From positions 27,521 through 91,520 of the forward strand of contig JAJEAG010000024.1 of NCBI GenBank assembly GCA_022824265.1: a stretch of 64,000 nt of DNA, in the 5' to 3' direction. The notes below the pieces were generated by a model. That model had not been told where the DNA came from and searched no databases. It saw nothing but the letters and a program-made list of their open reading frames with translations. The position numbers and the translations under genes were made by a program. This stretch comes from Candidatus Poribacteria bacterium. GTDB lineage: Bacteria > Poribacteria > WGA-4E > WGA-3G. Positions 6,164-56,123 of the stretch are shown here, piece by piece. How positions within the stretch are numbered: the first letter of the stretch is position 1; each line of letters begins with the position of its first letter.

Positions 6164-6550
6164 TTATTTTTCCGATTCGTCTAATTCTTGCATGAATGTT
6201 TCAACACTGGTAGTCTGGACTGCTTTACGATGCAGTTCTGTCAAACGATCAAGGTCCAGAATAGATTCAAGGGCATCCGACACAGGTTGTACATTGCTCA
6301 GCGGAAAACGCTCAGTGAGTACAGATAGAATATTGCTAATGGAATTTTCACGTGCACCTCGTTCATAGAATCGCTGTTCCAAGTGTTCTATAAAAGGAGA
6401 TTCTCGCATCATTTCCTCCGATATAAGTTTTTGTAAAAATGTAAGGTCATGGGCTAAACTACCTAACGTTGACATCGCAAACAAAAGTGTTCCACGCGTC
6501 TGTGTATCAACTGGTGCGGCAACCGTCTTCTCAACACATCTTTCTAACAA
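6164..6550 (-). CDS. DUF4351-like C-terminal fragment of an Rpn/YhgA-type PD-(D/E)XK nuclease-transposase-like protein, probably a remnant
   Basis: ILSVLTERFPLSNVQPVSDALESILDLDRLTELHRKAV resembles DUF4351 C-terminal regions. It uses a TTG start. An out-of-frame 44-codon ORF (6544..6678) overlaps its start, which suggests a frameshifted gene. Confidence 0.35.
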   Translation of the reverse strand: MLERCVEKTVAAPVDTQTRGTLLFAMSTLGSLAHDLTFLQKLISEEMMRESPFIEHLEQRFYERGARENSISNILSVLTERFPLSNVQPVSDALESILDLDRLTELHRKAVQTTSVETFMQELDESEK

Positions 6551-6801
6551 TATATGTGTTTATACCTATCGGAGTCAAGAGTCTCTAAAACTTCAACATC
6601 GGGTGTGTCAAAGGATAGCATGGCGAAGTCATCGGCGAACCGATCCATCAGATGCTTCACGATTTCATCATATTGTGCCATGCTAATTGTTATACCTTTT
6701 CCTACAGGTTTGTTTTATTGATTATACTTGAGGGGATGGGTGGATTGTCAAGGAGAGTTTTTGATGTGATGTTTTGGAAACTGTGGTAAAATAAGGATGT
6801 A

Positions 6802-8010
6802 TTAAGCATTGGTATTAACTCTTTCAACTGCATGCTCAAAAGTATTCTTATAGACTGTACTTTTCATTCTACTTCGAATGAAGGTCTCAAGTGATCTTAT
6901 GCCCTTTTTCATTTCTTCGCGAACTCGACTTGCTTCAAAGTTGAATGTATACAGATTATGGCATGCTCGACGATGAATGTGGTTATTTCCATCACGATCT
7001 TCAAGATAGTCTATGTACAAAAGGGCATCGTTCTCGTTGCTAATTGAAAAAACTTCCCCACCTTCAACATCCCAATCTTTTACTATAAAACCCTCATTGT
7101 TAATCAACTGAAGTAAATGCTGTGCAAAATCACGACGATTTTGCTGATATTTGACGGGGTTTTTCTCCTTTTCTCTTTTGGAGAATCGTGTCCAGTGAAA
7201 ACCAGGTAATTGAACGTTTTTGAATGCTGCACTAAGCATCCAACTCTGTGAATCAACCGTATCAGCTCCACTGTAAAAAGCAAATAGCATTAACAACGCA
7301 GATCCCATTGAAAAACAGTGTATATGTGAATTAGGAAGAAGTTCTCGAACCTTATGAATAATGTCAATGGCTGTCCGTTTATTCCCGTTAAGTGCAAGTG
7401 GAGCTAAACTCCCAATACCAATAATAGAAGGAGTATATCCATATATTTTGACTATATTATCCAGTCGGCGTTTGAGAGTGCTTGGATTGTGACCGTGAAT
7501 AACTGGCATTAGTTGAAATCCATTGGGAATATCTCCATTTAGTGAATCTAATCCTTCGAACATTTTACGAGTGTTTTTTAGTGTATTTTGCCAACGCTTG
7601 CTTCTTTCTCTCCCATCAGATTCTGGTAGGAAAGGATGATCAAGCACAACTGATATATTAACCTTAAACTCAATTCCAACTTTAAGTACGTCAACAGCAT
7701 CTATGCTAATTTTGTTCTGTTTCTGGAAATTAAAAGCACCAGAATCAAGCATCAGAGGTCCATTAAACTCTATATATTCATGGAGTTTTCCGGGTCTTTC
7801 ACGGATTTCCGGAGTAAATAGACGTGTTCGTTGGTTTGCTAATATATCAAATGCATTAACGAGAAGTGCTTGGGTACCAGTGATTTTCCACGGATGGAAA
7901 GCCAAACCTGCCCGCGGAAAATCACCTATGCGATAACTGGCAAAAAGATTGGGTGTTTCAAATGAGAAATTTTGAAGAATGGAAGGAATTGCTATATCTT
8001 GATCCATCAA
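6802..8010 (-). CDS. tRNA-guanine transglycosylase (TGT)-fold protein, DpdA-like. Last gene of the six-gene operon.
   Basis: PLMLDSGAFNF aligns with TGT DSGGFQ. VVLDHPF aligns with aFDEC. IGIGSLAPL / LPNSHIHCFSMGS / GADTVDS follow the TGT (beta/alpha)8 core order. No CxCxxC...H zinc site. Start overlaps the upstream ATPase by 4 nt. Confidence 0.5.
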   Translation of the reverse strand: MMDQDIAIPSILQNFSFETPNLFASYRIGDFPRAGLAFHPWKITGTQALLVNAFDILANQRTRLFTPEIRERPGKLHEYIEFNGPLMLDSGAFNFQKQNKISIDAVDVLKVGIEFKVNISVVLDHPFLPESDGRERSKRWQNTLKNTRKMFEGLDSLNGDIPNGFQLMPVIHGHNPSTLKRRLDNIVKIYGYTPSIIGIGSLAPLALNGNKRTAIDIIHKVRELLPNSHIHCFSMGSALLMLFAFYSGADTVDSQSWMLSAAFKNVQLPGFHWTRFSKREKEKNPVKYQQNRRDFAQHLLQLINNEGFIVKDWDVEGGEVFSISNENDALLYIDYLEDRDGNNHIHRRACHNLYTFNFEASRVREEMKKGIRSLETFIRSRMKSTVYKNTFEHAVERVNTNA

Positions 8011-9176
8011 TTTCCATCTTCCACTATCAGTTTCATTCGTTCACGCATTCTTTCTAAAAAAATTCCTGGTAAAACCTTAAATTCAACCTTTTCCATATCT
8101 TCTTTTAGTGAATTATATTCTATCTCAATATCATTCCTATCAAGTGGTTTTAAGTCAATTGTATTAGATCGATTTGGTATGTCTAACTTACGAACAATTT
8201 CAAAGTTGTCACGTCCATTTTCTAAGTAGTCGGACACATACTCAATTGCAAGTTCAATGTTGTCTATTGGTTGAAGTTCTAATGGTTTACCTAAACGTCT
8301 TTGAATAGCGGGATATTGTCCAAGATCACTAGGGTCAGGAACTGTGGCAACTACAAAAAAAACTAATTCATTTAATGTATCAAAACAATGTCGTAAATCC
8401 TGTGCATACTGTGATTGACGTGATCGAGTTAATCCTTCAAATATTTCCTCAAATTCATCAAACAGAAGTATTATACCATCACATAGGTTTGTTCTTTTTA
8501 AGACTACAAGTAATCCGTATAGGAAACGTATAGCAAGTGACGAACTCGTAATATCAATAGGTTGCTTTCCCAAATGAGTTAATAGTTTTTTGTCTGCTGC
8601 AAGGAGTTTATGTCCTTTTAGCCAACGAATAAACGCATCTTTTTTTCGTTCTTGAAAGGTAGTAAACAATTCAGTTTGGATAATTGCTTTGATTATTTCC
8701 AATAATTCACTTGCAGTATTTTCCTCTTCTGAAAGTTTATCTATTTGAGTTTTGTCTGATTTTAAAGTTGTAATAAGATTATTCATAAAAGATTCTGTCA
8801 GTTTATCAACAATCTTTGCATGTATATTTAGATACGCTTCACCTGGATCTGAGATATAAATTGGATAAAGATTACCAATTTGCTTACTACGTCTTGCTTC
8901 GTCGGTCAATTTTTCAAAGTAACGTAAGATATTTGTCTTACCAGCATTGTGTTTACCGTTTATGCACAACCTTTTTGCGTCTGATGTAAAATTATTTATT
9001 ATATAAAAAAAGGTTTGTTTAATTTCTTCTTGGTCACTACAAACTTCAAAACGCGTTTCGCCAGGTCCAGGAAATGGATTTTTAAGTAGATTATATTTTT
9101 CATATGGACTGGAGATTTGTGGTTTGTTACCAATTTTAATCAGGTCTTTTTTCCATGTCATTGTTATTTCTCCCAA
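8007..9176 (-). CDS. P-loop AAA+ ATPase (AAA_16 / Cdc6-like type)
   Basis: Walker A INGKHNAGKTNILRYF and Walker B IILLFDEFEE. The N-terminal NPFPGPGETRF resembles the Cdc6/AAA_16 lead-in. Translationally coupled to the flanking genes. Confidence 0.6.
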   Translation of the reverse strand: MGEITMTWKKDLIKIGNKPQISSPYEKYNLLKNPFPGPGETRFEVCSDQEEIKQTFFYIINNFTSDAKRLCINGKHNAGKTNILRYFEKLTDEARRSKQIGNLYPIYISDPGEAYLNIHAKIVDKLTESFMNNLITTLKSDKTQIDKLSEEENTASELLEIIKAIIQTELFTTFQERKKDAFIRWLKGHKLLAADKKLLTHLGKQPIDITSSSLAIRFLYGLLVVLKRTNLCDGIILLFDEFEEIFEGLTRSRQSQYAQDLRHCFDTLNELVFFVVATVPDPSDLGQYPAIQRRLGKPLELQPIDNIELAIEYVSDYLENGRDNFEIVRKLDIPNRSNTIDLKPLDRNDIEIEYNSLKEDMEKVEFKVLPGIFLERMRERMKLIVEDGN

Positions 9177-10105
9177 CGAATTAGTTTGATCAATTTACCA
9201 TTCACATGCAATCCATCCTCCAGATAACGATAGTCAAGCCATAATGATCCTTTTCGCATAATATTCCTAACTTTTTTGGTTTCCTCAATATTCAGTAATT
9301 TTGCAATTAGACGTTCGCTAAGTATTTCATTCCTTGGTCGAATTGAAATGATTTGGTAATTCCCTGAAATTTCACTGCGGATCGTTGCAGGAGCAAGTGT
9401 TATTTTTCCGGGAAAATTTTTTACAAATAGGTTCATTTTCATCTCAAAAGCCTGAAAAGAAATCCGCAATTTCCGACATACGAGATGTGCTAACTGTCCA
9501 AGGTTTGCATACCCAGACGTTTTTTCACACTGGTTGTAACTTTCCCAACAAGCTGTTCTGAAAAGTTTTAACGACGGTTGTTTTTCATCCCATTCTCCTC
9601 CCCAATAGATGACTCCTTCAAAAGGAGAACGGTATGCATGTCCTACTGATACCGACCATGCCTGAAATGTATCAAAAGCGACGAAGGTAATGTTATAATT
9701 TTGTTTTATCTTAAGTCCCAAATCTCTTCGAGATGCTTTATCATTGCGTTGCGGAATTTTGATTTCGCCTTCATTTTTTAGGCATTCAAGGAAATCTGCG
9801 TAAGGGGGATAATTTCTCAATCCTTGATTCATCGGCAGCAAATGATTTCCAGAATTCCAAGCACCAATAAAATTATCATAATTTTCAGTCAGGCACAATA
9901 CATTATGATCTTGTTTACACTGAGTTAACCATTTGGATTCACTAAAGATACGTAGAATATCTTTCACCCTACGATCAAGACGTTTTATTTTACCTTGACT
10001 ATCTACAATTTCATATAGTATATCCAGTGAGAGTTTATTATCATCACGGTGTGTCTCAATGGAATCAGCAATGGAAAGTAATTTATTCATGGTAATTGGG
10101 TCCAC
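9164..10105 (-). CDS. Hypothetical protein, 313 aa, operon member
   Basis: Long ORF in an operon with overlapping start and stop codons. No recognisable motif. Confidence 0.5.
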   Translation of the reverse strand: MDPITMNKLLSIADSIETHRDDNKLSLDILYEIVDSQGKIKRLDRRVKDILRIFSESKWLTQCKQDHNVLCLTENYDNFIGAWNSGNHLLPMNQGLRNYPPYADFLECLKNEGEIKIPQRNDKASRRDLGLKIKQNYNITFVAFDTFQAWSVSVGHAYRSPFEGVIYWGGEWDEKQPSLKLFRTACWESYNQCEKTSGYANLGQLAHLVCRKLRISFQAFEMKMNLFVKNFPGKITLAPATIRSEISGNYQIISIRPRNEILSERLIAKLLNIEETKKVRNIMRKGSLWLDYRYLEDGLHVNGKLIKLIRWEK

Positions 10106-10108
10106 TTA

Positions 10109-11185
10109 TCATTCCTCCTGGATTTCCATGACATCACGAGCAAAGAATCCACCGCGTGCCTGTGAGTAATAAACAAGTTTGTATGTGCGAGATAATTTTT
10201 CGTTCACTAAACGAATAGTACTGAACACCTGCGCCAAATCCCAAAGTAAATAATGTACAGGGGTTAGTAACCACCTTTTATTGTAGGAATCGTATCGTAC
10301 CGAACTCATCTCCTTACGCATAGAGGGAACACTGATGTGGAGACTGTCTTGGTTTTCTAAGGTTGCCAGAGAAGCCATATCTTTATCTCCTGTGAGCAAG
10401 TAGACTCCTTTTTGTATTCCTCGACTCTGCTTGAAATCTTTCAAACTTTCAATAATCAGGCGGTCATTCTTTGAATCAATTTTGATCTGATCTAAATGTT
10501 GAGGAATACTCCTTAGGATTTCTACAGGTCTCCATAGACGAATGTGACTCAATTCCCTACTAATACATGAAACTTGTGGACGCTTTTCCAAAACACGGTA
10601 TTTAGCGATGTTTGGGTTAGTGCCTCTTCCGCTTTTTTTCCAGATTTCATTCATCTCATATACTTGTTGTTGTATTTCAGTCATCACGAAAACCGGAACA
10701 ACCGTCCATATTGGCACAGTACGTAGTGTCATATGCAAAAAAGAAGAAATTGCTCTCCGTAAGGCACCGGTGTCCACGACGAATGTTAAATATCCATGTT
10801 TTGAAAGTTGTCTCATTACCTCAAGGAATTCTAATTCAATAGTTTGTTCTTCCATTAAGCAAAACTTTGGACATAGAAGTCCTGTTCGTAGCATACTGTC
10901 CGCGAGTTGATCCCAAATAAGTTTTCTTGCTTGATCTGCTATATTTTCTTTGGAGGATAATTCAGAAAAACGAGATTTAATATCTTGATTAGCTACAGGT
11001 GCAAAAGTAAAAGGTAGAATTGGATATTCTCGTGCTGTTTTATCGGATTCATCAATTGTAATATAAGCCAACTTAATATAATTACAATTTTCAAGATGAG
11101 TCCCGTCTGTATAAGATACCTCCCATTTTCCCCAAAAAGGATATTCGGCTATAAACTCATCAAGTTTTAGTAGTCGTTTACCCAT
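10109..11185 (-). CDS. Hypothetical protein with a putative PIN-like nuclease domain
   Basis: Spacing of acidic residues matches a PIN core: LTFVVDTGALRR, VPVFVMTEIQQ, NDRLIIESL, VYLLTGDKDM. The N-terminal ~130 aa is unknown. Confidence 0.4.
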   Translation of the reverse strand: MGKRLLKLDEFIAEYPFWGKWEVSYTDGTHLENCNYIKLAYITIDESDKTAREYPILPFTFAPVANQDIKSRFSELSSKENIADQARKLIWDQLADSMLRTGLLCPKFCLMEEQTIELEFLEVMRQLSKHGYLTFVVDTGALRRAISSFLHMTLRTVPIWTVVPVFVMTEIQQQVYEMNEIWKKSGRGTNPNIAKYRVLEKRPQVSCISRELSHIRLWRPVEILRSIPQHLDQIKIDSKNDRLIIESLKDFKQSRGIQKGVYLLTGDKDMASLATLENQDSLHISVPSMRKEMSSVRYDSYNKRWLLTPVHYLLWDLAQVFSTIRLVNEKLSRTYKLVYYSQARGGFFARDVMEIQEE

Positions 11186-11591
11186 CAGAAATTCTCACTT
11201 TGTAGTCAGTACGCTGGTGGTGGTTCTGCAAGATTTCCTGTACAACAGCGGTTAAAATTGTGCTTGATTTCAACGCTGGCCTGGAAATTTTGTCTTCAAA
11301 TTCCTCACTAGATACTTCCATATCTGTTTGTATATCTTTAAATACAGAAAATACCTGCTTTTTTAACGGATCGGGTAAATAGAAATCTACTTCTTCAGGA
11401 TTTGAAAATGTAGGCATTTTAGTTTCAGGGTCTTTTGAATCCAAATTCACGACCTTATCTAAGAGAGAATCCAAATGAATTATTATTTCATTTTCATTTC
11501 TCCATTGTTGAAAGTCAAGAATAGAAAGATCTGGTACAGAATAAATCTCAACTACTTCTTGTGTTGAGGGATTAATAATTTCTAATTTCAT
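11178..11591 (-). CDS. Hypothetical protein, 137 aa, operon member
   Basis: ORF overlaps the downstream gene start by 8 nt. No motif recognised. Confidence 0.45.
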   Translation of the reverse strand: MKLEIINPSTQEVVEIYSVPDLSILDFQQWRNENEIIIHLDSLLDKVVNLDSKDPETKMPTFSNPEEVDFYLPDPLKKQVFSVFKDIQTDMEVSSEEFEDKISRPALKSSTILTAVVQEILQNHHQRTDYKVRISDG

Positions 11592-11622: not shown

Positions 11623-12066
11623 CTATTCCCATAACCATTTTTTTAACTGAGTCTGTCTTTTGCCTATCACTCCGTGTGTAAAAACGGACCTTGTAGGCAT
11701 TGGAATCTTATGTTTCAAATCCTCAAATGCCTTCTGGTAGGTCCTTCCAAGTACAAAGCAAATTGAAGCATGATTTTTTCGAAGAATGTCTGAAAAAGTT
11801 GTTTTGATTTGAGGCTGCAACTCAACTACCCGTGAGAAGTTCATCTTTTGATCATAGAATTCAGTTTGAAAATCTGCTGGAATAAGTCCATAATATGCAG
11901 ATAAGATGTAAACATCCAACCATTCTGCCTTGAGCGGACATTCACGAAGAAAACGTCGTAAAACAAAAAATAGTGGACCGTTATATCTTTCAATTGCCGG
12001 CAACTGTTCTTGTGAAGTGTTTTTGCGTTGTGAACAAGATAAAATCAGCAAACGTTGACTGTTCAT
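11623..12066 (-). CDS. Small hypothetical protein with a YaaA/DUF328-like N-terminal motif, first gene of the operon
   Basis: LLILSCSQRKN...PAIERYNGPLFFVL is reminiscent of the YaaA N-terminus (MLILISPAKTL...RY). It is much shorter (147 aa), so similarity is tentative. Confidence 0.4.
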   Translation of the reverse strand: MNSQRLLILSCSQRKNTSQEQLPAIERYNGPLFFVLRRFLRECPLKAEWLDVYILSAYYGLIPADFQTEFYDQKMNFSRVVELQPQIKTTFSDILRKNHASICFVLGRTYQKAFEDLKHKIPMPTRSVFTHGVIGKRQTQLKKWLWE

Positions 12067-12339
12067 AATATCTCTATTGCAAATGCAGAATCATGTTAGA
12101 TATATATACCGTAAGTACCGTAAGTGTATATATTGTAAACTACACACATTATTTTTTCAAGTAGAAAATATGTCTATAAGGTAAAATGATAGAAATAAGG
12201 ATGGGATTCACTTAACTGATCACAATTCACGGTATTCTCCTTTAAACACTTTTCTGACATGCCAACCGATAATTTCTTCCTCTGGATAATAGGATCGTCT
12301 TTGCGGTAAAGTAATTCTTATACCATAAAAATCCATAAG

Positions 12340-13006
12340 TCATTCCTGAAATCCTGTTGTCCCGTGTGCATCATCGGAAGCCAAAATTATTCTCTTTTTA
12401 GATAATGTGAATGTACCACGGTCAAACAGTTTTTGATGTGAACTGTGAGTCAGCCTATTACCATCTGCTATGACATACATTTAGAACGATAATGTATCTC
12501 ATATTATCTTAAGAATGTAATTCAATTCCTACTGCATGTATAACTTCTTTATATTTCGATTCATGAAACGTTCTTTCCAACATCATTTGAGTGACCTCAA
12601 TATGTAAAGTAGGATCACTGAGGAATTGTTCTATAATCGCTTCATGAAAACCACCAGATACATTGTTATCATGAAGTTCTCTTGGTTTTACATTACCCGA
12701 TACATCCTCTTCAATACTGTCAGCATTTGTCACAAACCATACACAGTATTTCTTTAAACGCCAAAATGGATCATGAGTTCCTTTATTTGTTTTTCTGGGA
12801 CCAAACTTTTTTAACAATTTACCAAACGATTCCTCAATTTCTGCGTATGTATGTATTCGTTGTTCATTATTTATTAATTTCCCGATTGCATACAAAACCA
12901 ATAATGGCCTATGAGGTGAAATTACCCCATTACGTTTAAATGGTTTAATTCTATCAAACAATTCAATTATTGTATCTCTGTCCATTTGCATCAGTAACCT
13001 CCCCAA
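12340..13006 (-). pseudogene. Disrupted restriction-type HNH endonuclease
   Basis: ORF 12509..13006 encodes only the N-terminal domain (SPHRPLLVLYAIGKLIN) typical of McrA-like HNH restriction enzymes. Downstream, out of frame (12480..12340), is ...NRLTHSSHQKLFDRGTFTL, matching the HNH C-terminal H..FDRG motif. The intervening catalytic His segment is missing. Confidence 0.5.
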
Positions 13007-13008
13007 AA

Positions 13009-13431
13009 TTACTTATGACATATCAAACAAGGATCTTCATCATCCTCATCATCGTGTACATCGGTAAGGATTTCTATGAGTCGCCGATTTGGTTTTTCCT
13101 TTTTCTTAGAAGTCTTTGCCTTTTCAGTATTTTCCTTAATTTGTTTAATCCGTTTAGGATCTGCAAGTTCCTCCAAACTTTCACCCTGACTCCACGTGAA
13201 CCGTTCGCCTGTCTCACCTTTAGCAAGTTCAAAAAGGTCTGGATGTTGCTCCAAGAGTCCCACCCATTCAGATTTGCGTTGGAAAAAGCAGAAGTAGCAG
13301 CCGGAACGTGTGCGCCACTTGTAATAGTCGGGCAAACCGAGTCCACTTTCCTCAAGGATTTGGAAAACGTCATCTGCTGAACTATCTTTACCACCAGATA
13401 GACCGAGAAGATGTCGTATTTTTTCTGCCAA
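13009..13431 (-). CDS. Truncated PP-loop ATP pyrophosphatase (PAPS-reductase/DndC/QueC-like), probable remnant
   Basis: SGGKDS PP-loop at residues 12-17, followed within 25 aa by a Cys cluster (WRTRSGCYFCFF) that normally lies ~150 aa further on. Acidic C-terminal tail ends in CLICHK. 140 aa total. Confidence 0.45.
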   Translation of the reverse strand: MAEKIRHLLGLSGGKDSSADDVFQILEESGLGLPDYYKWRTRSGCYFCFFQRKSEWVGLLEQHPDLFELAKGETGERFTWSQGESLEELADPKRIKQIKENTEKAKTSKKKEKPNRRLIEILTDVHDDEDDEDPCLICHK

Positions 13432-13448: not shown

Positions 13449-13709
13449 TTAATGTAAAACTGCGTTGTTTTCTTTTGTGACGCGAATTAGAAGTCGTAAA
13501 GCTTCGTTTACAGATGCAGCATCTGGAAACACTTCAGCAACGTCGGGTTCTAATTGGATAACAAGTTTACCACCAAAGGATTTACGTCCGGGACCTACCT
13601 TCCGCAATCGTAACTTTTTCAAGTCATATTCGGGCAAAAGATCGTCTTGCATCTTTGCTTTATCCTTCTTCATAATCTTTCCTTTCCTGCGGAGTTGCTT
13701 TTCTTGCAC
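13449..13709 (-). CDS. brnA: BrnA-family antitoxin (ribbon-helix-helix)
   Basis: DDLLPEYDL...KVGPGRK...VIQLEPDVAEVFPDAASVNEALRLLI matches the BrnA antitoxin pattern. It overlaps the brnT stop. The true start is probably an internal Met (13673 or 13652). Confidence 0.65.
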   Translation of the reverse strand: MQEKQLRRKGKIMKKDKAKMQDDLLPEYDLKKLRLRKVGPGRKSFGGKLVIQLEPDVAEVFPDAASVNEALRLLIRVTKENNAVLH

Positions 13710-13932
13710 TAATCAAACGAGTCTTATTACCTCTTTCAGAATATGCTACCATTAATACTCGATTTTGTGCTGATAGTCCGATGATAAGATACCTTTCCTC
13801 CTCAATAGAGTGATTTGGATCATCAAACACAACAAAAAGAGGATCTTCAAATACCGTTTTTGCTTCATTAAATGACACACCATGTTTTGATTGGTTCGCA
13901 GCATCTTTATTTGTATTCCATTCAAAATCCAT
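13660..13932 (-). CDS. brnT: BrnT-family toxin (DUF497 ribonuclease)
   Basis: MDFEWNTNKDAANQSKHGVSFNEAKTVFEDP is the canonical BrnT N-terminus. Confidence 0.75.
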   Translation of the reverse strand: MDFEWNTNKDAANQSKHGVSFNEAKTVFEDPLFVVFDDPNHSIEEERYLIIGLSAQNRVLMVAYSERGNKTRLISARKATPQERKDYEEG

Positions 13933-20356: not shown

Positions 20357-21802
20357 TTATTCGACTATAGATTCTTCGTTAAATAAATCCTTGAGGTCTA
20401 TAAGTAGAATATCATCTTCAGCTGCTCTATATTTTAAGGATTCTGTAAAGCCACTTGCAGAAAACAGAATATATCTCGGATCCTGCTGCCATTGAGTTGG
20501 TACTCTTTTTGACCTTTCAATCAGACGTGCCAATACATTTTCTCCAACTGGTTGATTCCACCATTTACATTCTCCAAATGTATGACTACCATCTAAGTTC
20601 TCTGTCATTATGTCAATTTCAATATCTGATTCCCAATGTCTACCCACAAGTATTGGAGGACTCATTAACTTTTCCTTCCCGAACAGACTAACATACTGTA
20701 TACATACATCTTCAAAGATTTCTCCCATATACTGTGATAAGTTCGGCTCAATCATTTGTTTATATACCAAATCTGAATTCTCTGATTCTATTAGACTCCT
20801 ATTCGGTAATACAAAGCGAAACCAGAATTTTATATAGTTTTCTGCTATTTTGTATATACCTTTTTTGCTTTTTAGTGGTGCTCGTTCCGTCACTGGAGTT
20901 TCTCGTTCTACCAATCCTAATTCCCTGAGAACACTTAGGTATTTATTTACACTTGTTGTACTAAGTCCAACTCTTTGTGATATTTCATTTAATCGCGTCA
21001 TACCACCAGCAACTGCTTGTAATATACTGGCATAAGTTCTGGGTTCTCTTAGTTCGGTTCGTAACAGAAAATTTACTTCATCAAATAAATATCCCTGAGG
21101 TGTGAGTAACTCATTTATGATACTTCGTTCAATATTTTTATGATATGTTTCTTTCAAATTTTGGGAAAAGTCTATTGTAAAACGATTCAGATAGGATGGT
21201 ATTCCACCAAGCATTCCATATACAAGCAATTTCTCTTTGTTTGTATAGTCAGGAAAGAACTTAGCACTATCTCTATAGGATAATGCTGTTAACTTTTTTT
21301 GGCTTGTCCTTCTCCCAAATAATGGTGATTTTTCAGCCAGCACTTCACCTTCCATAAAACTAACATGCGATCCACATAATATAAGGAAGATTCTACTGTT
21401 TTTCCCATGTAAGTCCCAAAACCGTTGTATAAGAGATGGTAGTGCAGGGTTGTCTTCACAGAGATATTGAAATTCATCAAGAACTACAACTAACCGCTCT
21501 TCTTGAGCCTTTTGTGCAAAATAGATTAATGCAGATTCCCAATCTCTAAATGTCATATTCTTTAGTAAAGGATCATCAATGACATGCTGTGCAACTTCCA
21601 TTACCTGATTTAGGTGATCACTTTCTTTCAACTGACTTGCCAGAAAGTAGATACTCCGTTTGTCCTTACAAAACTGCAACAGTAACTCAGTTTTTCCTAT
21701 TCTCCGTCTTCCATATAACACAAACAATTCTGGACTCTGTGTTTGATACATTTTTTCTAAATGATTTAATTCTTGTTCTCTGTTAATGAACACAGATTTC
21801 AC
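20357..21802 (-). CDS. AAA-family ATPase with a C-terminal DUF234 domain (Arch_ATPase type)
   Basis: Walker A YGRRRIGKTELL and Walker B VVVLDEFQYL. Length ~480 aa, typical of the ATPase+DUF234 family. Confidence 0.6.
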   Translation of the reverse strand: MKSVFINREQELNHLEKMYQTQSPELFVLYGRRRIGKTELLLQFCKDKRSIYFLASQLKESDHLNQVMEVAQHVIDDPLLKNMTFRDWESALIYFAQKAQEERLVVVLDEFQYLCEDNPALPSLIQRFWDLHGKNSRIFLILCGSHVSFMEGEVLAEKSPLFGRRTSQKKLTALSYRDSAKFFPDYTNKEKLLVYGMLGGIPSYLNRFTIDFSQNLKETYHKNIERSIINELLTPQGYLFDEVNFLLRTELREPRTYASILQAVAGGMTRLNEISQRVGLSTTSVNKYLSVLRELGLVERETPVTERAPLKSKKGIYKIAENYIKFWFRFVLPNRSLIESENSDLVYKQMIEPNLSQYMGEIFEDVCIQYVSLFGKEKLMSPPILVGRHWESDIEIDIMTENLDGSHTFGECKWWNQPVGENVLARLIERSKRVPTQWQQDPRYILFSASGFTESLKYRAAEDDILLIDLKDLFNEESIVE

Positions 21803-49087: not shown

Positions 49088-52000
49088 CTAATCGGGTTTC
49101 CACCAAGGTGCGAGTCTGGGAGGAGAACCAGAACCAAATTCTTCGCCTCGACAGAATTCGTCAAGTTTTCTGCCGAAAACTTTTATATTTCTTCTTAAGT
49201 CTGAAGGATTTCCCCATCGTGACCAAAATCTATCTACGAGCGCAAGGAATTTAGGATCGTATTCTTGTATTTCATTATAAAGTCCTTCCTCTTTTCCAAT
49301 TTGGTAATGCCACCAATTTGCAGTGGGTGTCAGAGCAGGTTTCAATTGCTCAAAAACTGCAGATATTCTAAATAAATCTTGATTTTGTAAAGCCTCTCTG
49401 TAGGCTTCTCTGCAACTATGTTCTTGTTGCGCCACTTCGTACGCCCATGCTGCATGTCTACGAACCCACATGCTTGGATCAATTGATTTCAAATCCTCAA
49501 GTAGTTCAATGGCTTTGCCTGTTCCAAACCACGGCAAAATCGAGACCCCCAAGTTGCGTTCTTTTGCGTAATGGCTTTCCAAGTATTCCTTTTCGACTAA
49601 ATCCAATAACTCTTTCTCACCCCGTCCTGTTATAGCAGCAATTGTCATTAACATTATTTCTTCATCGTTTTGACATTCCTCTAAGAGATTATGTCTAAGT
49701 TGTACATGTTGTGGTGTATTACATTGTTCCACTTTCCAGATTTGAGCGTGAAAGGTTTCAATTCCATATTGGTTATAATTAAAAGTTCTTACATTTCCAG
49801 TTCTCCATTGTTGAAATATTTTAATTGCTTTTTCTGGTTGAAAGCGTAGTAACAAACAAAGGATAACATCCGTAAAATCGCTTAAGTCCCTTCTATACCA
49901 TGGAGATTTAGAAAGTTCTGTTAGATATTGATCTGATAGATATAAGAATTCATTTTGATTCTGTTCTGCCCAAGTTTGGATCACATCTCGGTTTATCCCA
50001 TACCGTGTATCTTCAACAACATTAGGATCATTTTCAATCCTTCTGAGTATTGATAACATACAATTCATAAGGTCAATGCCCCACCGCGAAAGATCATCCT
50101 GGCGGTCTGGTCCACAAAGGAAAGAACCTATAAATTCTGGGGGTATGAGCGATCTTAGTGACTCATAGGAAGGCACATCATTCCCCTCATAAGTAGGGAT
50201 TATCCATTTTCTTCCGTTCTGTGAAAAAAGATGATTCTGTATATTTTCATCCTTTTGTGTTTCGTTTAAAAATAGTTTTGGAAGAGAATATGCTAATCGC
50301 AGCATTGGATATGTTCCCGTTGAATCGGGTTTTCTCATCTTAAGATCTTCTAATGCATACTTTACTGTTCTATCCTCATGTTTAGATGCATAAGCAAATA
50401 ATGCACACCAATATTCCTCCTCCAAGAACTCTTCCGATTCCTCATCGGAAATAATCTGATTTTCCTGAGATAAAGTTCGGAATTCTTCCAACTTCTTCTG
50501 TGCTAATTCAATAATTGAGACTGGTAACAGTTTTTTAAACAAACAAGGCAATGACTCATAGCAAATTGAAGACCTGAGTGGTTCCTGAGACGCTAGGAAC
50601 TCAAACCAATCTATGAGAATTTCCTCAGATGCACAAAATAGGAGAGATTCTGTTAATAAATGAGTTAACCAAGCAACATCCGAATAATAATCTTCACCTT
50701 GAACAAGTCGTTTCTTCATTTTAAGAATTGCTTCTGTGATTTTTTGGCAATCTTCCTGTCTAAAAATAAGACCCTGAATTGACAATAGTTTGAACTGCGC
50801 CCATTTTTGAGGTAGAGTATTGATTTTAAGATTACAAGCAAGTTGAGCGTAACCCTCAGCATCATATTTTGCTATCCATGGCATTAAGTTTTGTATACAA
50901 TAGTCCTCAAGTGAAGCATCTACCCCTTGTCCGAGTTTGACATTTTTGGATATGTAGTGTAATATCTTCTTAATACTATTTAAATCTGCATTATGCAAAT
51001 CAGGTAAATCTGTCCGAGCCGCTAAATAATCAAGACCATGGTAATTGCCATTCACATTTTCTGCAGGTGACCTGTCTTTTAGTAACATCTCTTGGTCCCG
51101 GATCCGATCAATAAAAGGCTTGAAAGTGCTGTTCCATTTTTCGGCAAATTCTTTCCTTTCTTTGTTCTCCTCAGAAGGTGGACGCTGCAGTTGTTTATGT
51201 AAATTCGCTTGTTTAAGCTCACTTGCTAAACCATACACGCCTTTAATCAAATGTTCATCGGATGGATCTTGTTCTACTAATGAACGTAAGTCTTCTAATA
51301 TTGATTCAGTATATTCCCACCGTATTAGTCTACCTATATTTTTATTAAACTCAGGTTTTTGCTCATGAATTGCATAGCAGCGGGCAAGTGTAGGTAAAAA
51401 TTGACATTCTGGTCTTTGAGACAGGATAGAAAGTGCTGCTATTGCTAATCGAGTTTGTGTATAGTACATTGTTGGAAATGGAAGACTCTTAGGATTAATA
51501 TTGTCATCGCCATTTATTACTTCATCAGCATATGTAGGCAGAAGCCATTTTGTAAGACGCGATGCTAAATCATTAAGTTCACCTTTTTTGGTTCGCCAGA
51601 CTCTTGCCAATGGCTCAATGAGTGTATCCTCCTCATTTGGTGAAAGTTGATTTTTAAATTCCAATTCAACAACTTGACAATAAGCATCTGTGTAGTTTTC
51701 AACGCAAACAGACAAATGTTTTTTAGTAATTTGTGCATTGTGGCTATTAAACCAAGTAAACATTAAGGCTGCTTGTTTCTTAGAAATGTCAGAATCAGGA
51801 GATATTGCCATGATTTGGAGAGCATCAAACAATGCTCTTGTTCTCAGATCTTCTGAAGGAATTGGTTCAAGTGCCCTCTTTAAGCATTCAACCAAGTCAT
51901 TAATTTCTGCAGACTCCTCACTGTCAATTTGATTAGAGAGATATAATGCCCATCCAAGAACAATATGTTCGGAGCTTAAATTAGCGTGGACTAATCCTGC

Positions 52001-53515
52001 GTCAAGTACAATCCTTTGTTCCTCCAAGTCATGACGGATTTCATTGTAGTTCGGGAAGAACTTTAGAAGCACCTGAACAGATATTTGAGGAACATTATCA
52101 TCCGTCCATTTAACTTGTTTAGCAAGTTCTGAAAGTATTTCTTGGGCATCTTTAGCTTTATGCCATCCGAGTTTCTGTTTAAGCTGGGGATTTGTTTGAT
52201 CAATTTTATCAAGGAGATCAACCCACAAAACCAATTCTTTGGTTACAGTCTCAAATGAACCAAATCTATCACGTAACCGAATACATGTTTGAAAGTAACG
52301 TGGGTTTTTTGCAATATCCTTTAGTGAATCTGGCAAGTCATGAAGTTGCATTCCTTCTTTGGATAATGCCTTTTGCAATTCAGGATCGTTATAAGGGGTT
52401 ACTGAAATTTTATGGCACTGGTCCCACAAATCTTTCTCAAAGTCTGGGTAATCGCTTAAAGGCCGAGTGGTAAATAGAAAACCAATTCTATCTTTCCATT
52501 CGCTATTATGCCGAAAATAATCATTAAGGATGTGCTGTGCTGTTTCAATGGCATCTCTTTCATTTACACCGTCAAGTACAATAAGCGTTTTACGCCAGAT
52601 TTTTGCGGGTTTGTTTTGAAGCTTGGTTATCTTAGCTTGTTCAGAAGATGGATAGATTAAACTAAAACAGTTGTAAAGCAAGTCAAAAATAGACTTACTA
52701 CCTTTCCAGTCTTTACTATCTATCCAAAAGGTGGCAATATTTTCATTTTCCCCAATTGAGTTCATCCACTTAGCGGCAAACCATGTTTTACCAGTGCCTT
52801 CCTCACCTTCAAGGTAGCAAACTGATGTATCTTGCATTTGCCACCAATCTGTGATTTGTGATTGTAAGGATCCTCTATCTATCGCTTGAGTTAAGTCAAT
52901 CGGATTGAAGCCTTCATTCCGGTTAAAACGTTCAGTGAGATATTTTTCAACTTTCCGTTGAACGTGTATTTGGGTTTGGATTCCGTCTTCTAATTTGAAT
53001 TTGAGCTCTTCTAATTTTTTCTTTGTTTCTGCGTCATTCTTCATTTCTTCAATCCAAACTAAATAATCTTGGTCTGTGTCTGATAGATCAAAAAAGTGAC
53101 ATATTTTTTCCCAAAAGGTTATACACAATGCTCCGATATCTGATAAATCATCAGAAAGTTCAAGTAAAACTATATCCAAACCTGTTTCCAAACTAATTGC
53201 ATCTATTCTGTCGCGTATTTGCGCTGTATCACGAGAAACTGCCAAAACATATACTTGAAGATGTGATAATGTACGTATTACATTACGAATATCTCCTTCA
53301 ACTTGATTAGCATTAGGAGTATTATCACTCGTATACCTTTTTGCTTGCATTGATACTTCACCAGAGATGCTTCTTGCATCTCCACTTGGTTGTTCACCAG
53401 CTCTTGCAACGACAAAAGGTATTTTTAGAAACGATTTTAGTAATACCGCAACAAGTTCTTCAAACTCATTAGGCTTTATTTTGTGGATAAGTTCTTTTAG
53501 TTTTAGCCAACTCAT
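49088..53515 (-). CDS. Avs-like STAND NTPase with N-terminal Mrr-type (PD-(D/E)xK) nuclease domain and C-terminal helical (HEAT/TPR-like) repeats
   Basis: N-terminus FEELVAVLL...GDARSISGEVSMQAKRY...DIVLLEL matches the Mrr_cat pattern. Walker A YLEGEEGTGKTWFAAKW and Walker B TLIVLDGVNE (NACHT-like hhhhDGhDE). Length 1475 aa with a long alpha-helical C-terminus. Confidence 0.6.
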   Translation of the reverse strand: MSWLKLKELIHKIKPNEFEELVAVLLKSFLKIPFVVARAGEQPSGDARSISGEVSMQAKRYTSDNTPNANQVEGDIRNVIRTLSHLQVYVLAVSRDTAQIRDRIDAISLETGLDIVLLELSDDLSDIGALCITFWEKICHFFDLSDTDQDYLVWIEEMKNDAETKKKLEELKFKLEDGIQTQIHVQRKVEKYLTERFNRNEGFNPIDLTQAIDRGSLQSQITDWWQMQDTSVCYLEGEEGTGKTWFAAKWMNSIGENENIATFWIDSKDWKGSKSIFDLLYNCFSLIYPSSEQAKITKLQNKPAKIWRKTLIVLDGVNERDAIETAQHILNDYFRHNSEWKDRIGFLFTTRPLSDYPDFEKDLWDQCHKISVTPYNDPELQKALSKEGMQLHDLPDSLKDIAKNPRYFQTCIRLRDRFGSFETVTKELVLWVDLLDKIDQTNPQLKQKLGWHKAKDAQEILSELAKQVKWTDDNVPQISVQVLLKFFPNYNEIRHDLEEQRIVLDAGLVHANLSSEHIVLGWALYLSNQIDSEESAEINDLVECLKRALEPIPSEDLRTRALFDALQIMAISPDSDISKKQAALMFTWFNSHNAQITKKHLSVCVENYTDAYCQVVELEFKNQLSPNEEDTLIEPLARVWRTKKGELNDLASRLTKWLLPTYADEVINGDDNINPKSLPFPTMYYTQTRLAIAALSILSQRPECQFLPTLARCYAIHEQKPEFNKNIGRLIRWEYTESILEDLRSLVEQDPSDEHLIKGVYGLASELKQANLHKQLQRPPSEENKERKEFAEKWNSTFKPFIDRIRDQEMLLKDRSPAENVNGNYHGLDYLAARTDLPDLHNADLNSIKKILHYISKNVKLGQGVDASLEDYCIQNLMPWIAKYDAEGYAQLACNLKINTLPQKWAQFKLLSIQGLIFRQEDCQKITEAILKMKKRLVQGEDYYSDVAWLTHLLTESLLFCASEEILIDWFEFLASQEPLRSSICYESLPCLFKKLLPVSIIELAQKKLEEFRTLSQENQIISDEESEEFLEEEYWCALFAYASKHEDRTVKYALEDLKMRKPDSTGTYPMLRLAYSLPKLFLNETQKDENIQNHLFSQNGRKWIIPTYEGNDVPSYESLRSLIPPEFIGSFLCGPDRQDDLSRWGIDLMNCMLSILRRIENDPNVVEDTRYGINRDVIQTWAEQNQNEFLYLSDQYLTELSKSPWYRRDLSDFTDVILCLLLRFQPEKAIKIFQQWRTGNVRTFNYNQYGIETFHAQIWKVEQCNTPQHVQLRHNLLEECQNDEEIMLMTIAAITGRGEKELLDLVEKEYLESHYAKERNLGVSILPWFGTGKAIELLEDLKSIDPSMWVRRHAAWAYEVAQQEHSCREAYREALQNQDLFRISAVFEQLKPALTPTANWWHYQIGKEEGLYNEIQEYDPKFLALVDRFWSRWGNPSDLRRNIKVFGRKLDEFCRGEEFGSGSPPRLAPWWKPD

Positions 53516-53562
53516 TTTCTCTTTCCAATATTTCTACAAGATTTTGGTTTTGCTTCCAAATA

Positions 53563-55017
53563 TCAAAATTCCTGACTCCCTATAATATATGCATTTAAGT
53601 GATTCAATGCACTGCCATCATCCATTACTGACTTTGTGCGTTTGAGTGCTTCGTGTGGGTCAGGAGAAATCCCTAATAGATAATCTACCATAGCAGCGTT
53701 AAGCAGAATCCTATCGTAGATATGTCCTTTCTCTCCAGATAATGCAGCTATTCCTGCTTCTGTATACGCCTCAGCATTAACACTATCTGGTCGCGGATTT
53801 ACCTTATATTCAAATCCATAGGTTTTTGGATCAATGTCCAATGCAAAATCTTCGCGATTTCCATCAATGTGTCGGAATCCTTGTGAATAGTTGACTGCCA
53901 TTCTTTCAGGTGTAGATGGTTTCCCGAGACGAAGTGCGTAATGGCTTGTGCCTTCTTCACCTTTTATCGCAATTGCAGCGTGAAAACCTCGTTCATAAGC
54001 CATTTGAAGTAATGGTTTTTCATATCCAATGTGGTAGTAACCTATAACCATGTAATTCCTCTTACGAGCTGAGAAGAATTGTAGGGCTTTTTCCGTAGCA
54101 GCCCATGGCGGACGTTTCATGATATGCACACGTAATTCACGAATGTCATAAGCTCCAGGTGAATACTCACGTTGACTGGCATATCCAAACCCAACCGCTT
54201 TATCTGTAATTAATTGTGCTGTCTGTTCAAGTGTTAGATCAGTTTTTGCACCAAGTGCTTTCAATAACGTTTCTTCGGTGATACCATTCTTAGGTGGCAT
54301 TTCATCCACACTATGAAGCAGAGAAGGTTCTCCCAGTGCTGCTCTTACTGCTGCAACAAATAGAGTTGGACGGAAATAACGGGTTGCGCCGTCGTAAGGT
54401 TGTCCAAAATGGGTAAGGTTATCCACATCAATGGCTTTGATCTGTTCTGGATCAAAATAGGAATCAAGATATCCTCGAACTTCGTCGTAAGTTTCCCTGT
54501 TCATACGTTGTCCAATAAGCGCGGCAGCCTTTAGTGCCGGTTTAACTTTGTCAGAAAGGATGACTTCACACATCTGTCTTGTTTCTTCGTAACTTAAGTG
54601 CTTTGCTTGTAATATCTTTTCTAATGCGGAAACAACGATTGCCTCGGTTGGGTTATTGGGAATATAAACAATTTCTGGGTTGATAAGATATTGAATCTCT
54701 TTCGGCAAACGAGATAATAAAGACGGTAGGTATTTCTGAAATGCAGTTTTTTCTGCGGGGGACCACTGTGTTTCTTCAGGAAAATATTTTCTTAGGGTCA
54801 TTGCAACGAAAAATGCACCCAATTGTGCTTCTGAAACCTTCTCGTCGTGTCCCAATTGTCCATTCAACGAGTCTAAAACAGTTTCAAGGATGGCATCTGG
54901 CTGTGGTCCATCTGAAGGCTTTTTCCCTAAAGGACGTGTTTGATGAGGTCCGGTGCAGACACGTGCCTGCGCTTCAAGCATATCTTGATTGGGACCGGGA
55001 TATTGAGGAGTGTACAT
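53563..55017 (-). CDS. Divergent glycosyltransferase-family-3 (TrpD / nucleoside phosphorylase II)-fold protein
   Basis: AIAIKGEEGTSHYA resembles the TrpD VVHG.DGLDE motif. C-terminal GSALNHLNAY resembles the TrpD GSALEKLEAL seen at the window start. The N-terminal ~150 aa are extra. Confidence 0.35.
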   Translation of the reverse strand: MYTPQYPGPNQDMLEAQARVCTGPHQTRPLGKKPSDGPQPDAILETVLDSLNGQLGHDEKVSEAQLGAFFVAMTLRKYFPEETQWSPAEKTAFQKYLPSLLSRLPKEIQYLINPEIVYIPNNPTEAIVVSALEKILQAKHLSYEETRQMCEVILSDKVKPALKAAALIGQRMNRETYDEVRGYLDSYFDPEQIKAIDVDNLTHFGQPYDGATRYFRPTLFVAAVRAALGEPSLLHSVDEMPPKNGITEETLLKALGAKTDLTLEQTAQLITDKAVGFGYASQREYSPGAYDIRELRVHIMKRPPWAATEKALQFFSARKRNYMVIGYYHIGYEKPLLQMAYERGFHAAIAIKGEEGTSHYALRLGKPSTPERMAVNYSQGFRHIDGNREDFALDIDPKTYGFEYKVNPRPDSVNAEAYTEAGIAALSGEKGHIYDRILLNAAMVDYLLGISPDPHEALKRTKSVMDDGSALNHLNAYIIGSQEF

Positions 55018-56049: not shown

Positions 56050-56123
56050 CGGGGCGTGGCGCAGCCCGGAAGCGCGCTTGAATGGGGTTCAAGAGGTCGC
56101 TGGTTCAAATCCAGTCGCCCCGA
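56050..56123 (+). tRNA. tRNA-Pro (anticodon GGG)
   Basis: Folded by hand. Acceptor CGGGGCG/CGCCCCG, D-stem GCGC/GCGC, anticodon stem CUUGA/UCAAG with loop AUGGGGU, T-stem GCUGG/CCAGU, T-loop UUCAAAU, discriminator A. No encoded CCA. Confidence 0.8.

Follow-up and report, generated by a model that had tools for sequence, protein, structure and literature searches.

The window analysed here is a stretch of 64,000 nucleotides from a Candidatus Poribacteria bacterium (contig JAJEAG010000024.1 of GenBank assembly GCA_022824265.1, positions 27,521 to 91,520). Its minus strand carries an operon of six tightly packed, partly overlapping genes, in the order F-A-B-C-D-E, whose last gene, E, encodes a protein related to the tRNA-guanine transglycosylases (TGT). 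This is apparently an undescribed defence-island operon: no description of it was found in the literature searched, the coverage of which was incomplete and is not a proof of novelty. From the last gene to the first, the operon contains:

6802..8010, minus strand: gene E, a zinc-less TGT-like transglycosylase, intact open reading frame of 402 codons from the TTG at 8010

8007..9176, minus strand: gene D, an ORC/Cdc6-type (origin recognition complex) AAA+ ATPase resembling BrxD, whose stop codon overlaps the start of E

9164..10105, minus strand: gene C, 313 residues, a predicted tandem winged-helix protein (AlphaFold2 model)

10109..11185, minus strand: gene B, 358 residues, with a central PIN-like nuclease domain (Pfam PIN_4)

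11178..11591, minus strand: gene A, 137 residues, acidic and without a known family, present in the main operon type

11623..12066, minus strand: gene F, a DUF6884 protein (YaaA/DpdC-related fold; Pfam DUF6884, 4.1e-9)

The frame of gene E can also be read from an ATG at position 8007, which gives a protein of 401 residues. This is the likely true start, since the ATG forms a TGATG overlap with the stop codon of the upstream gene and the length agrees with that of a 401-residue database copy. The dN/dS values of the gene against four orthologues (0.10–0.16) indicate purifying selection.

An earlier note on this DNA, made from the letters alone, proposed that E has the TGT fold, and this is confirmed. 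The Pfam TGT family PF01702 matches E with an E-value of 1.4e-14 (54.4 bits, for a gathering cutoff of 26.3), and the AlphaFold2 model, computed from an alignment of 92 relatives, has a mean predicted local distance difference test score (pLDDT) of 95.2 and a predicted TM-score of 0.94. The best Foldseek match of this model is the catalytic domain of the archaeosine TGT (ArcTGT) from Pyrococcus horikoshii (1iq8, E=1.4e-14, probability 1.00), followed by the TGT from Zymomonas mobilis and mouse QTRT1; these tRNA enzymes match with query-normalised TM-scores (TMq) of 0.64–0.68 and a probability of 1.00. The Pfam alignment pairs only residues 17–265 of E with positions 15–266 of the 357 positions of the model, so that the C-terminal quarter of the model has no partner in E. 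The protein consists of the catalytic domain only, without PUA domain and without the tRNA-binding domains C1 and C2. It scores 14.2 bits with the bacterial Tgt model TIGR00430 (tRNA G34; cutoff 306.75) and 68.6 bits with the archaeal TgtA model TIGR00432 (tRNA G15; cutoff 350), and thus fails both. The PADLOC model of DpdA gives 22.7 bits with E (9e-6), compared to 430 bits with the DpdA from Allocoleopsis. We are confident that E belongs to the TGT superfamily, within a group of short, ArcTGT-like proteins from bacteria.

The searches returned 412 relatives of E, the best 120 of which are all at least 64% identical to it; 380 relatives were found at E≤0.001 among 1.84 billion cluster representatives. 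No member of the E family was detected in 50,697 phage GenBank records or in IMG/VR, and the TGT-like structure models of viral origin match E more poorly (TMq of at most 0.57). The plasmid search with E returned only TGT-like or DpdA genes, at 23–31% identity. On a plasmid of Nostoc sp. NIES-3756 (L043:12104-13051), a TGT-like gene of 315 codons has a DEAD/DEAH helicase gene on either side, and a DpdA of 714 residues is encoded a few kb away.

The catalytic residues of E were assigned using HMMER alignments to ArcTGT, and BLASTP and hhalign alignments to a bona fide cyanobacterial DpdA. The three aspartates are paired identically in all these alignments:

7744..7746, minus strand: codon of D89 in the DSG motif, general acid/base, equivalent to D95 of ArcTGT, D102 of the Z. 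mobilis enzyme and D95 of DpdA

7639..7641, minus strand: codon of D124 in the LDHP motif, which reads the edge of the base, equivalent to D130 of ArcTGT and D130 of DpdA

7252..7254, minus strand: codon of D253 in the GADTVDS motif, the nucleophile, equivalent to D249 of ArcTGT, D280 of the Z. mobilis enzyme and D256 of DpdA

All three are invariant in 21 members of the family, and they are found in 98 (D89), 99 (D124) and 97 (D253) of 99 representatives of the superfamily. S90, H231 and F233 are likewise conserved from the family to these 99 representatives. F93 and F233 occupy the positions of F99 and F229, which sandwich the base in ArcTGT, and are conserved. H231 corresponds to H227 of ArcTGT and precedes the nucleophile by 22 residues, as H226 precedes D248 in Cap10.

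The by-eye alignment of the earlier note, which paired DSGAFN, VVLDHPF and GADTVDS with motifs of the bacterial TGT, is upheld by the alignments to ArcTGT. The note also stated that the second catalytic aspartate, which it placed in the LMGVGxPDD motif, is substituted. However, the nucleophile of the TGT (D280 in Z. mobilis, D249 in ArcTGT, D256 in DpdA) belongs to the GIDMFDC-type motif, and the aspartate of the DSG motif is the acid/base (PMC5699537, PMC10164549). The FSMGS segment of E is the counterpart of LFGAG in ArcTGT, a base-stacking segment which contains no catalytic aspartate. The misassignment is thereby corrected: E has retained its catalytic aspartates, the second one being D253. 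The suggestion that E may use a different chemistry is not supported, the full TGT set (D89, D124, D253, H231 and the F93/F233 pair) being kept and the zinc of the TGT being structural; the conservation of this set therefore gives no sign of a different chemistry. The best explanation of these alignments is that E is catalytically competent.

The base pocket shows a single change. H172 of E replaces Gln169 of ArcTGT, a glutamine which is also present in the tRNA TGT and in the cyanobacterial DpdA; a histidine is found in 95 of 99 relatives. The idea that this histidine is a feature specific to DpdA was rejected, since the true cyanobacterial DpdA has a glutamine at the aligned position.

The absence of a canonical zinc site, one of the features that define the superfamily, was also proposed by the earlier note and is borne out: the motif scan and the alignment detect no CxCxxC anywhere in E, and H351 is the only remaining ligand. 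The note was mistaken about the aspartates and correct about the missing cysteines. The region concerned comprises:

6976..7221, minus strand: insertion between strand 8 and helix 8 (residues 264–345), which carries CxCPxC in relatives

7072-7095, minus strand: E306-G-F-I-V-K-D-W313, which replaces CxCPxC, together with about 30 extra residues in the alignment

6955..6969, minus strand: R348-A-C-H351-N352, in which H351 occupies the place of the zinc-ligand histidine (H307 in ArcTGT; RGFHN in true DpdA)

The zinc motif was counted over about 100 near-full-length relatives of E. CxCxxC is missing from E and from its relatives as far as about 38% identity (P0057, P0121-P0126), and CxCPxC is present in about 85 of about 90 relatives that are more distant, with identities of up to about 38%. 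The loss of zinc is therefore derived and confined to a single clade, in which the replacement stretch takes the form E-G-F-x-V-K-D-W. The Pfam and hhalign matches both end ahead of the insertion, which AlphaFold2 predicts with high confidence (pLDDT 94–98). The alignment to ArcTGT reaches R348-N352 through a weak second stretch; the RAxHN column is common to all relatives (R in 94, H in 97 and N in 97 of 99), and H351 has been retained despite the loss of the three cysteines. A new zinc site made of H346, C350 and H351 was considered and rejected: H346 and C350 are conserved in the closest family only, which indicates that there is no replacement metal site. The best explanation is that this clade lost the three cysteines and rebuilt the zinc sub-domain without a metal.

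In the TGT, the zinc is structural, and the zinc sub-domain of the tRNA enzymes is involved in dimerisation (PMC5699537). In DpdA, the metal pins the insertion between strand 8 and helix 8 onto the barrel. The CXCX2CX22H site is reported to be conserved across the DpdA family (PMC10164549), yet two of the four ligands are missing in the DpdA of phage 9g (PMC5699537). Considering this precedent and the structural role of the metal, the loss of zinc in E is notable and does not imply a new chemistry.

Gene F encodes the constant partner of E: in 27 of 32 genome loci, E has an F-type gene no more than 10 kb away, and these loci include all the distant ones which lack genes A–D. Across 26 homologues of F, the motifs CxxxK (C11..K15) and LSAxxG (L55-S-A..G60) show a conservation of at least 90%. 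DUF6884 has a YaaA-like DNA-binding fold with these two motifs, and its member YfjM is reported to bind DNA lesions and is modelled with a base flipped into a putative active site (PMC11701544). DpdC, which has been assigned to DUF328 or to DUF6884, two related families (PMC12839542; bioRxiv 10.1101/2025.02.24.639861), converts dPreQ0 into dADG in DNA (the 7-cyano- and 7-amido-7-deazaguanine nucleosides, respectively), independently of DpdA and DpdB (PMC10164549). Homologues of F match the DpdC models of PADLOC with E-values between 1e-5 and 7e-4. F itself matches component A of the PADLOC candidate system PDC-M57 (5e-10), so that its family has already been flagged as a defence candidate.

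The relation to DpdC is further illustrated by the annotated DpdA of Allocoleopsis PCC 7113 (L044:753-2849, plasmid pMIC7113.07), a fusion of 698 residues. The N-terminal domain is recognised by the models of DpdC and of PDC-M57A, has the motifs CTGEK and LSAGYG, and is similar to F by BLASTP (1e-5); it is followed by a full DpdA domain with the zinc motif CDCPIC..x22..H and with RGFHN. The combination of a TGT fold with a DUF6884-like domain is therefore a recurring and naturally fused pairing in a system which is proven to introduce 7-deazaguanines into DNA. These resemblances are consistent with F being a distant relative of DpdC. A QueD gene stands immediately upstream of the Allocoleopsis fusion.

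The gene order of the operon recurs in metagenomic contigs and in the 32 genome loci, which belong mostly to Candidatus Poribacteria, Latescibacterota, Chloroflexota and Acidobacteriota, with a single metagenome-assembled genome each from Saccharibacteria and Firmicutes. A Poribacteria chromosome (L001), in which E is 81% identical, shows synteny with the window. This patchy spread over unrelated phyla, at 64–81% identity, suggests horizontal transfer.

A second operon subtype, present in four loci, has E and F proteins that are 55–71% identical to those of the window and B, C and D proteins that are 27–34% identical; no gene A was detected in it. The Poribacteria genome OZ246979.1 contains both subtypes, in two copies (L010, L013), and further loci are L014, L015 and L023. 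Since E and F are conserved while B, C and D diverge, E and F form a conserved unit which is combined with variable and rapidly diverging nuclease, ATPase and recognition modules. Other loci contain the same pair with other partners. In L031, L034 and L039, E and F occur with a NurA-like protein and HerA. In L005 (1683-7229) and L033 (3263-8677), they occur with a giant protein of about 1800 residues with DEAD, Helicase_C, MZB and PLD domains. The L005 giant matches the DruE1 model of PADLOC (2.4e-130), and that of L033 (1804 residues) is similar by its Pfam helicase, MZB and PLD domains; each is accompanied by an unannotated protein of about 428 residues, beside the TGT-like and DUF6884 pair. 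Both loci resemble a Druantia-like system that includes a TGT-based module. Among the relatives which contain the zinc motif, P0138 adjoins NurA/HerA genes, and P0160 adjoins a DUF6884 gene and a gene with a weak ArcS-like DUF5591 match. Beside one zinc-containing relative and its DUF6884 partner, a weak match to DUF5591, the C1 domain of archaeosine synthase, lies at L042:9534-10112.

The neighbours of the relatives of E are of the kinds usual in defence islands and include N6/N4 methyltransferases, a ResIII helicase and a transposase, as well as an SspD-like PAPS (3'-phosphoadenosine 5'-phosphosulfate) reductase and a phosphorothioate-sensing SBD-HNH endonuclease. In the window, the operon is flanked by the following remains and island-edge gene:

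6170-6681, minus strand: remnant of the 293-residue gene which follows E in L001, with residues ~40–162 missing and a weak DUF3427 match

12223-13431, minus strand: decayed Ssp-type genes, with the C-terminal half of an SspD-like PAPS reductase left and an SBD-HNH gene in pieces

13660-13932, minus strand: BrnT-family ribonuclease toxin (Pfam, 2.8e-28), at the island edge

The SspD-like and SBD-HNH genes are intact in the syntenic locus L001 (4043-5769).

The other four genes of the operon have the following features. Gene D matches BrxC_BrxD in Pfam (1.2e-5) and BrxD in PADLOC (1.3e-7) and in NCBIfam (1e-6, 28 bits for a cutoff of 350); single and profile searches of the PDB sequences gave nothing useful. 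Its Walker A (G74..G79-K80-T81) and Walker B (D240-E241) motifs and the arginines 262, 293 and 294 are at least 90% conserved. Gene B has a borderline match to PIN_4 (5e-4, 20.7 bits for a cutoff of 21.9) and no match to PDB sequences in single or profile searches, and all of 18 orthologues share D138-T139, E170, D241 and D267. Gene C matches nothing in Pfam, PADLOC, NCBIfam or, by single and profile searches, the PDB sequences, and its 175 relatives are all unannotated. Its AlphaFold2 model (pLDDT 74.8, good for residues 1–230) has as best Foldseek matches tandem winged-helix proteins and the recognition domain of FokI, with weak E-values (0.012 or more), which makes C a candidate DNA-recognition subunit according to the model. 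Gene A has no match in the Pfam, PADLOC and NCBIfam scans, its position is conserved in about 18 loci, and it lacks a glycine-rich N-terminus of the CdnD kind.

PADLOC v2 and NCBIfam recognise the operon weakly and in fragments. No PglZ, BrxC or PglX was detected in it with Pfam, PADLOC or NCBIfam, so that it does not have the BREX (bacteriophage exclusion) set, and the helicase DruE is not found in the window. Promoter and terminator scans gave nothing above chance.

The reading that we favour, with a probability of about 0.55, takes E and F for a Dpd-like module which marks DNA with 7-deazaguanine, as part of a modular defence system. The earlier note suggested that E could act on DNA as DpdA does, and this gains indirect support from the lack of PUA, C1 and C2 domains, the nearby DUF6884 protein, the nuclease and ATPase modules and the location in defence islands. 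Since a relative of DpdC is its neighbour in a defence-island operon, E most likely marks DNA rather than tRNA. E would exchange guanine in DNA for a 7-deazaguanine, most simply preQ0 supplied by the queuosine pathway of the host. The exchange would proceed by double displacement, with D253 forming the covalent intermediate with the sugar and D89 acting as acid/base. F would then process the inserted base within the DNA, as DpdC does. The pair would thus be responsible for self-marking within a restriction-modification-like defence system; in the window, the second module of that system would combine the PIN-like nuclease B and the AAA+ ATPase D with the tandem winged-helix protein C. What is observed comprises the fold, the conservation of the catalytic residues, the absence of CxCxxC, the operon, the linkage of E to F and the swapping of modules; from these patterns we infer that the substrate is DNA, which base is inserted, what F does and that the system serves in defence.

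Several observations weigh against this reading. All the evidence for DNA as the substrate of E is of one kind, gene context, and by structure E is nearer to the tRNA enzymes, DpdA appearing at rank 46 of the Foldseek matches with a TMq of 0.55. E is not a DpdA by sequence, with 28.1 bits for a cutoff of 200 in the DpdA model NF041059, and the hhalign match between the two (probability 96.6%) covers the barrel alone. F itself has no match to the DpdC models at E≤0.1, and only some of its homologues match them, weakly. No QueD homologue was found in the window or in the flank of any locus (QueC, QueE and FolE were not part of this search), whereas QueD is reportedly present in 78% of dpd islands. 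Neither the operon nor the related loci contain a DpdB-like ParB/DndB ATPase, the only ATPase being the BrxD-like AAA+ protein. Gene D diverges together with B and C and not with E and F, which suggests that it may not assist the transglycosylase; the proposal that D is an analogue of DpdB is weakened for this reason. The replacement of the base-reading glutamine by H172, as judged from the alignments, means that the inserted base could differ. Finally, PIN domains are frequently RNases.

A broader version of the DNA-marking reading, which we put forward tentatively and hold to be somewhat less probable than not, is that the zinc-independent TGT and its DUF6884 partner are a portable cassette. 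It would write a 7-deazaguanine for at least three undescribed defence architectures (PIN nuclease with AAA+ ATPase and winged-helix protein; HerA with NurA-like protein; DruE-like) in Poribacteria, Latescibacterota, Chloroflexota, Acidobacteriota and others. The base written may be other than preQ0 or ADG (7-amido-7-deazaguanine), because of the change from glutamine to histidine in the pocket and of the lack of nearby que genes (QueD having been searched).

Four other explanations were considered, each of which is less consistent with the pattern of modules, with the set of partners or with the absence of companions that it requires. The one that survives best, although we regard it as unlikely, is that E is an effector or sensor acting on invading DNA. 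It would remove guanine analogues or ordinary guanines and leave covalent or abasic lesions, to be processed by the PIN, NurA or PLD nuclease, with F recognising the modified base. Defence glycosylases directed against phage DNA modified with 7-deazaguanine do exist (bioRxiv 10.1101/2025.10.29.685425), the TGT reaction itself starts with the excision of the base and the formation of a covalent intermediate (PMC5699537), YfjM binds damaged DNA (PMC11701544), and the system has no gene of preQ0 synthesis beside it, as far as QueD is concerned. However, E and F remain constant while the nucleases and ATPases are swapped and diverge, which fits a modification module better, and D89, the general base of the half-reaction in which the new base is inserted, is invariant.

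The best sequence and structure matches of E (ArcTGT, bacterial TGT, QTRT1) are all tRNA enzymes, and with the RNase activity common among PIN proteins they would fit an enzyme which acts on RNA, modifying or damaging the tRNA of the host or phage, with a PIN-like RNase, in abortive infection or in the control of translation. We consider this improbable. E scores far under the Tgt and TgtA cutoffs, it lacks the PUA, C1 and C2 domains, and its zinc sub-domain, which is linked to dimerisation in the tRNA enzymes (PMC5699537), has been rebuilt. In addition, its constant partner belongs to a family with a DNA-binding fold, and the alternative partners (HerA/NurA, DruE-like helicase-PLD protein) are DNA machines.

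There is a smaller chance still that the operon serves DNA repair or housekeeping, E and F dealing with damaged guanines. YfjM and YaaA are indeed tied to DNA lesions and oxidative stress (PMC11701544). This explanation agrees poorly with the patchy distribution, suggestive of horizontal transfer, with the two copies in one genome, with the neighbouring methyltransferases, restriction genes, toxins and transposases, and with the association of E and F with DruE-like and HerA/NurA modules.

It is very improbable that E handles a protein-linked 7-deazaguanine in the manner of Cap10, with the base conjugated to a partner such as protein A: Cap10 is a precedent for a defence TGT whose remodelled form binds a deazaguanylated protein (bioRxiv 10.1101/2025.04.06.647259) and shares the 22-residue spacing, but neither the QueC-like Cap9 nor a CD-NTase (the nucleotidyltransferase of such systems) was found in the operon or among the neighbours at related loci, protein A has no CdnD-like N-terminus, and A is missing from many loci which keep E and F.

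Elsewhere in the window, a protein of 1475 residues with a weak NACHT NTPase match lies beside a protein of 484 residues in which only the helical bundle Glycos_trans_3N is recognised (49088-55017, minus strand); they may be another defence pair. A protein with ATPase_2, DUF234 and helix-turn-helix domains, of a type common in mobile and defence contexts, is encoded at 20357-21802 (minus strand). The only RNA gene found by the Rfam scan of the window is a tRNA-Pro(GGG) at 56050-56123 (plus strand).

The marking of bacterial DNA with 7-deazaguanine has so far been tied to the Dpd system alone (DpdA, DpdB, DpdC). If the DNA-marking reading is correct, E represents a second, only distantly related TGT lineage in a Dpd-like role, which has other helpers, no zinc and a minimal DpdC-like partner, and which is plugged into several nuclease/ATPase modules, one of them Druantia-like. 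Self-marking with 7-deazaguanine would then extend well beyond Dpd, and new candidate defence systems would be added in little-studied phyla known mainly from metagenome-assembled genomes. The pair of genes would also offer a compact cassette for studying how a TGT is retargeted from tRNA to DNA, and a natural experiment on the dispensability of the structural zinc of the TGT.

Compared with known systems, E is closest in sequence to ArcTGT/TgtA of P. horikoshii (PDB 1IQ8; phmmer 7e-11, family profile 1e-11). Both have the TIM-barrel fold of the TGT, and D95, D130, D249, F99, F229, H227 and the zinc-site histidine of ArcTGT all have equivalents in E. Unlike E, which has 401 residues and a histidine at position 172, ArcTGT has 582 residues, the C1, C2 and PUA domains, the CxCxxC motif and Gln169; the host of E is bacterial and its context is a defence island.

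Cap10, from type IV CBASS (cyclic oligonucleotide-based antiphage signalling systems), is like E a TGT-family enzyme in anti-phage defence, with a nucleophilic aspartate and a histidine donor 22 residues upstream, but it requires Cap9 and a CD-NTase, neither of which was found with E. Of the candidate system PDC-M57, component A is matched by F, and neither E nor its relatives gave a match to any PDC-M57 model.

The BREX-related capture (BRC) systems are the nearest that the literature searched describes. Their TGT, compared with E by its description, is a proposed DNA marker which occurs beside HerA/FtsK and ORC/Cdc6-type ATPases (PMC12839542), and relatives of E likewise occur with HerA. The operon of E differs from BRC in that it lacks PglZ, DUF6079, a STAND NTPase, DUF4007 and GNAT. 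The authors of that study found no DpdC homologue in BRC (PMC12839542), whereas a DUF6884 protein is the constant partner of E.

DpdA1 of the E. coli phage 9g shares with E a TGT-family origin, action on DNA (inferred in the case of E) and an incomplete zinc site (PMC5699537). The DpdA from Salmonella Montevideo (PDB 7UI4), which inserts preQ0 into DNA in the Dpd system, has a CXCX2CX22H zinc site and is accompanied by DpdB and que genes, none of which is found with E (QueD having been searched), and its partner genes are different. Like E, it is a stand-alone enzyme without PUA domain and has the same three aspartates, and its gene shares an island with that of a DpdC-family protein and with genes for helicases, nucleases and ATPases (PMC10164549). 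E thus fails the tests for DpdA, Tgt, TgtA and Cap10, yet in its inferred role it is DpdA that it resembles.

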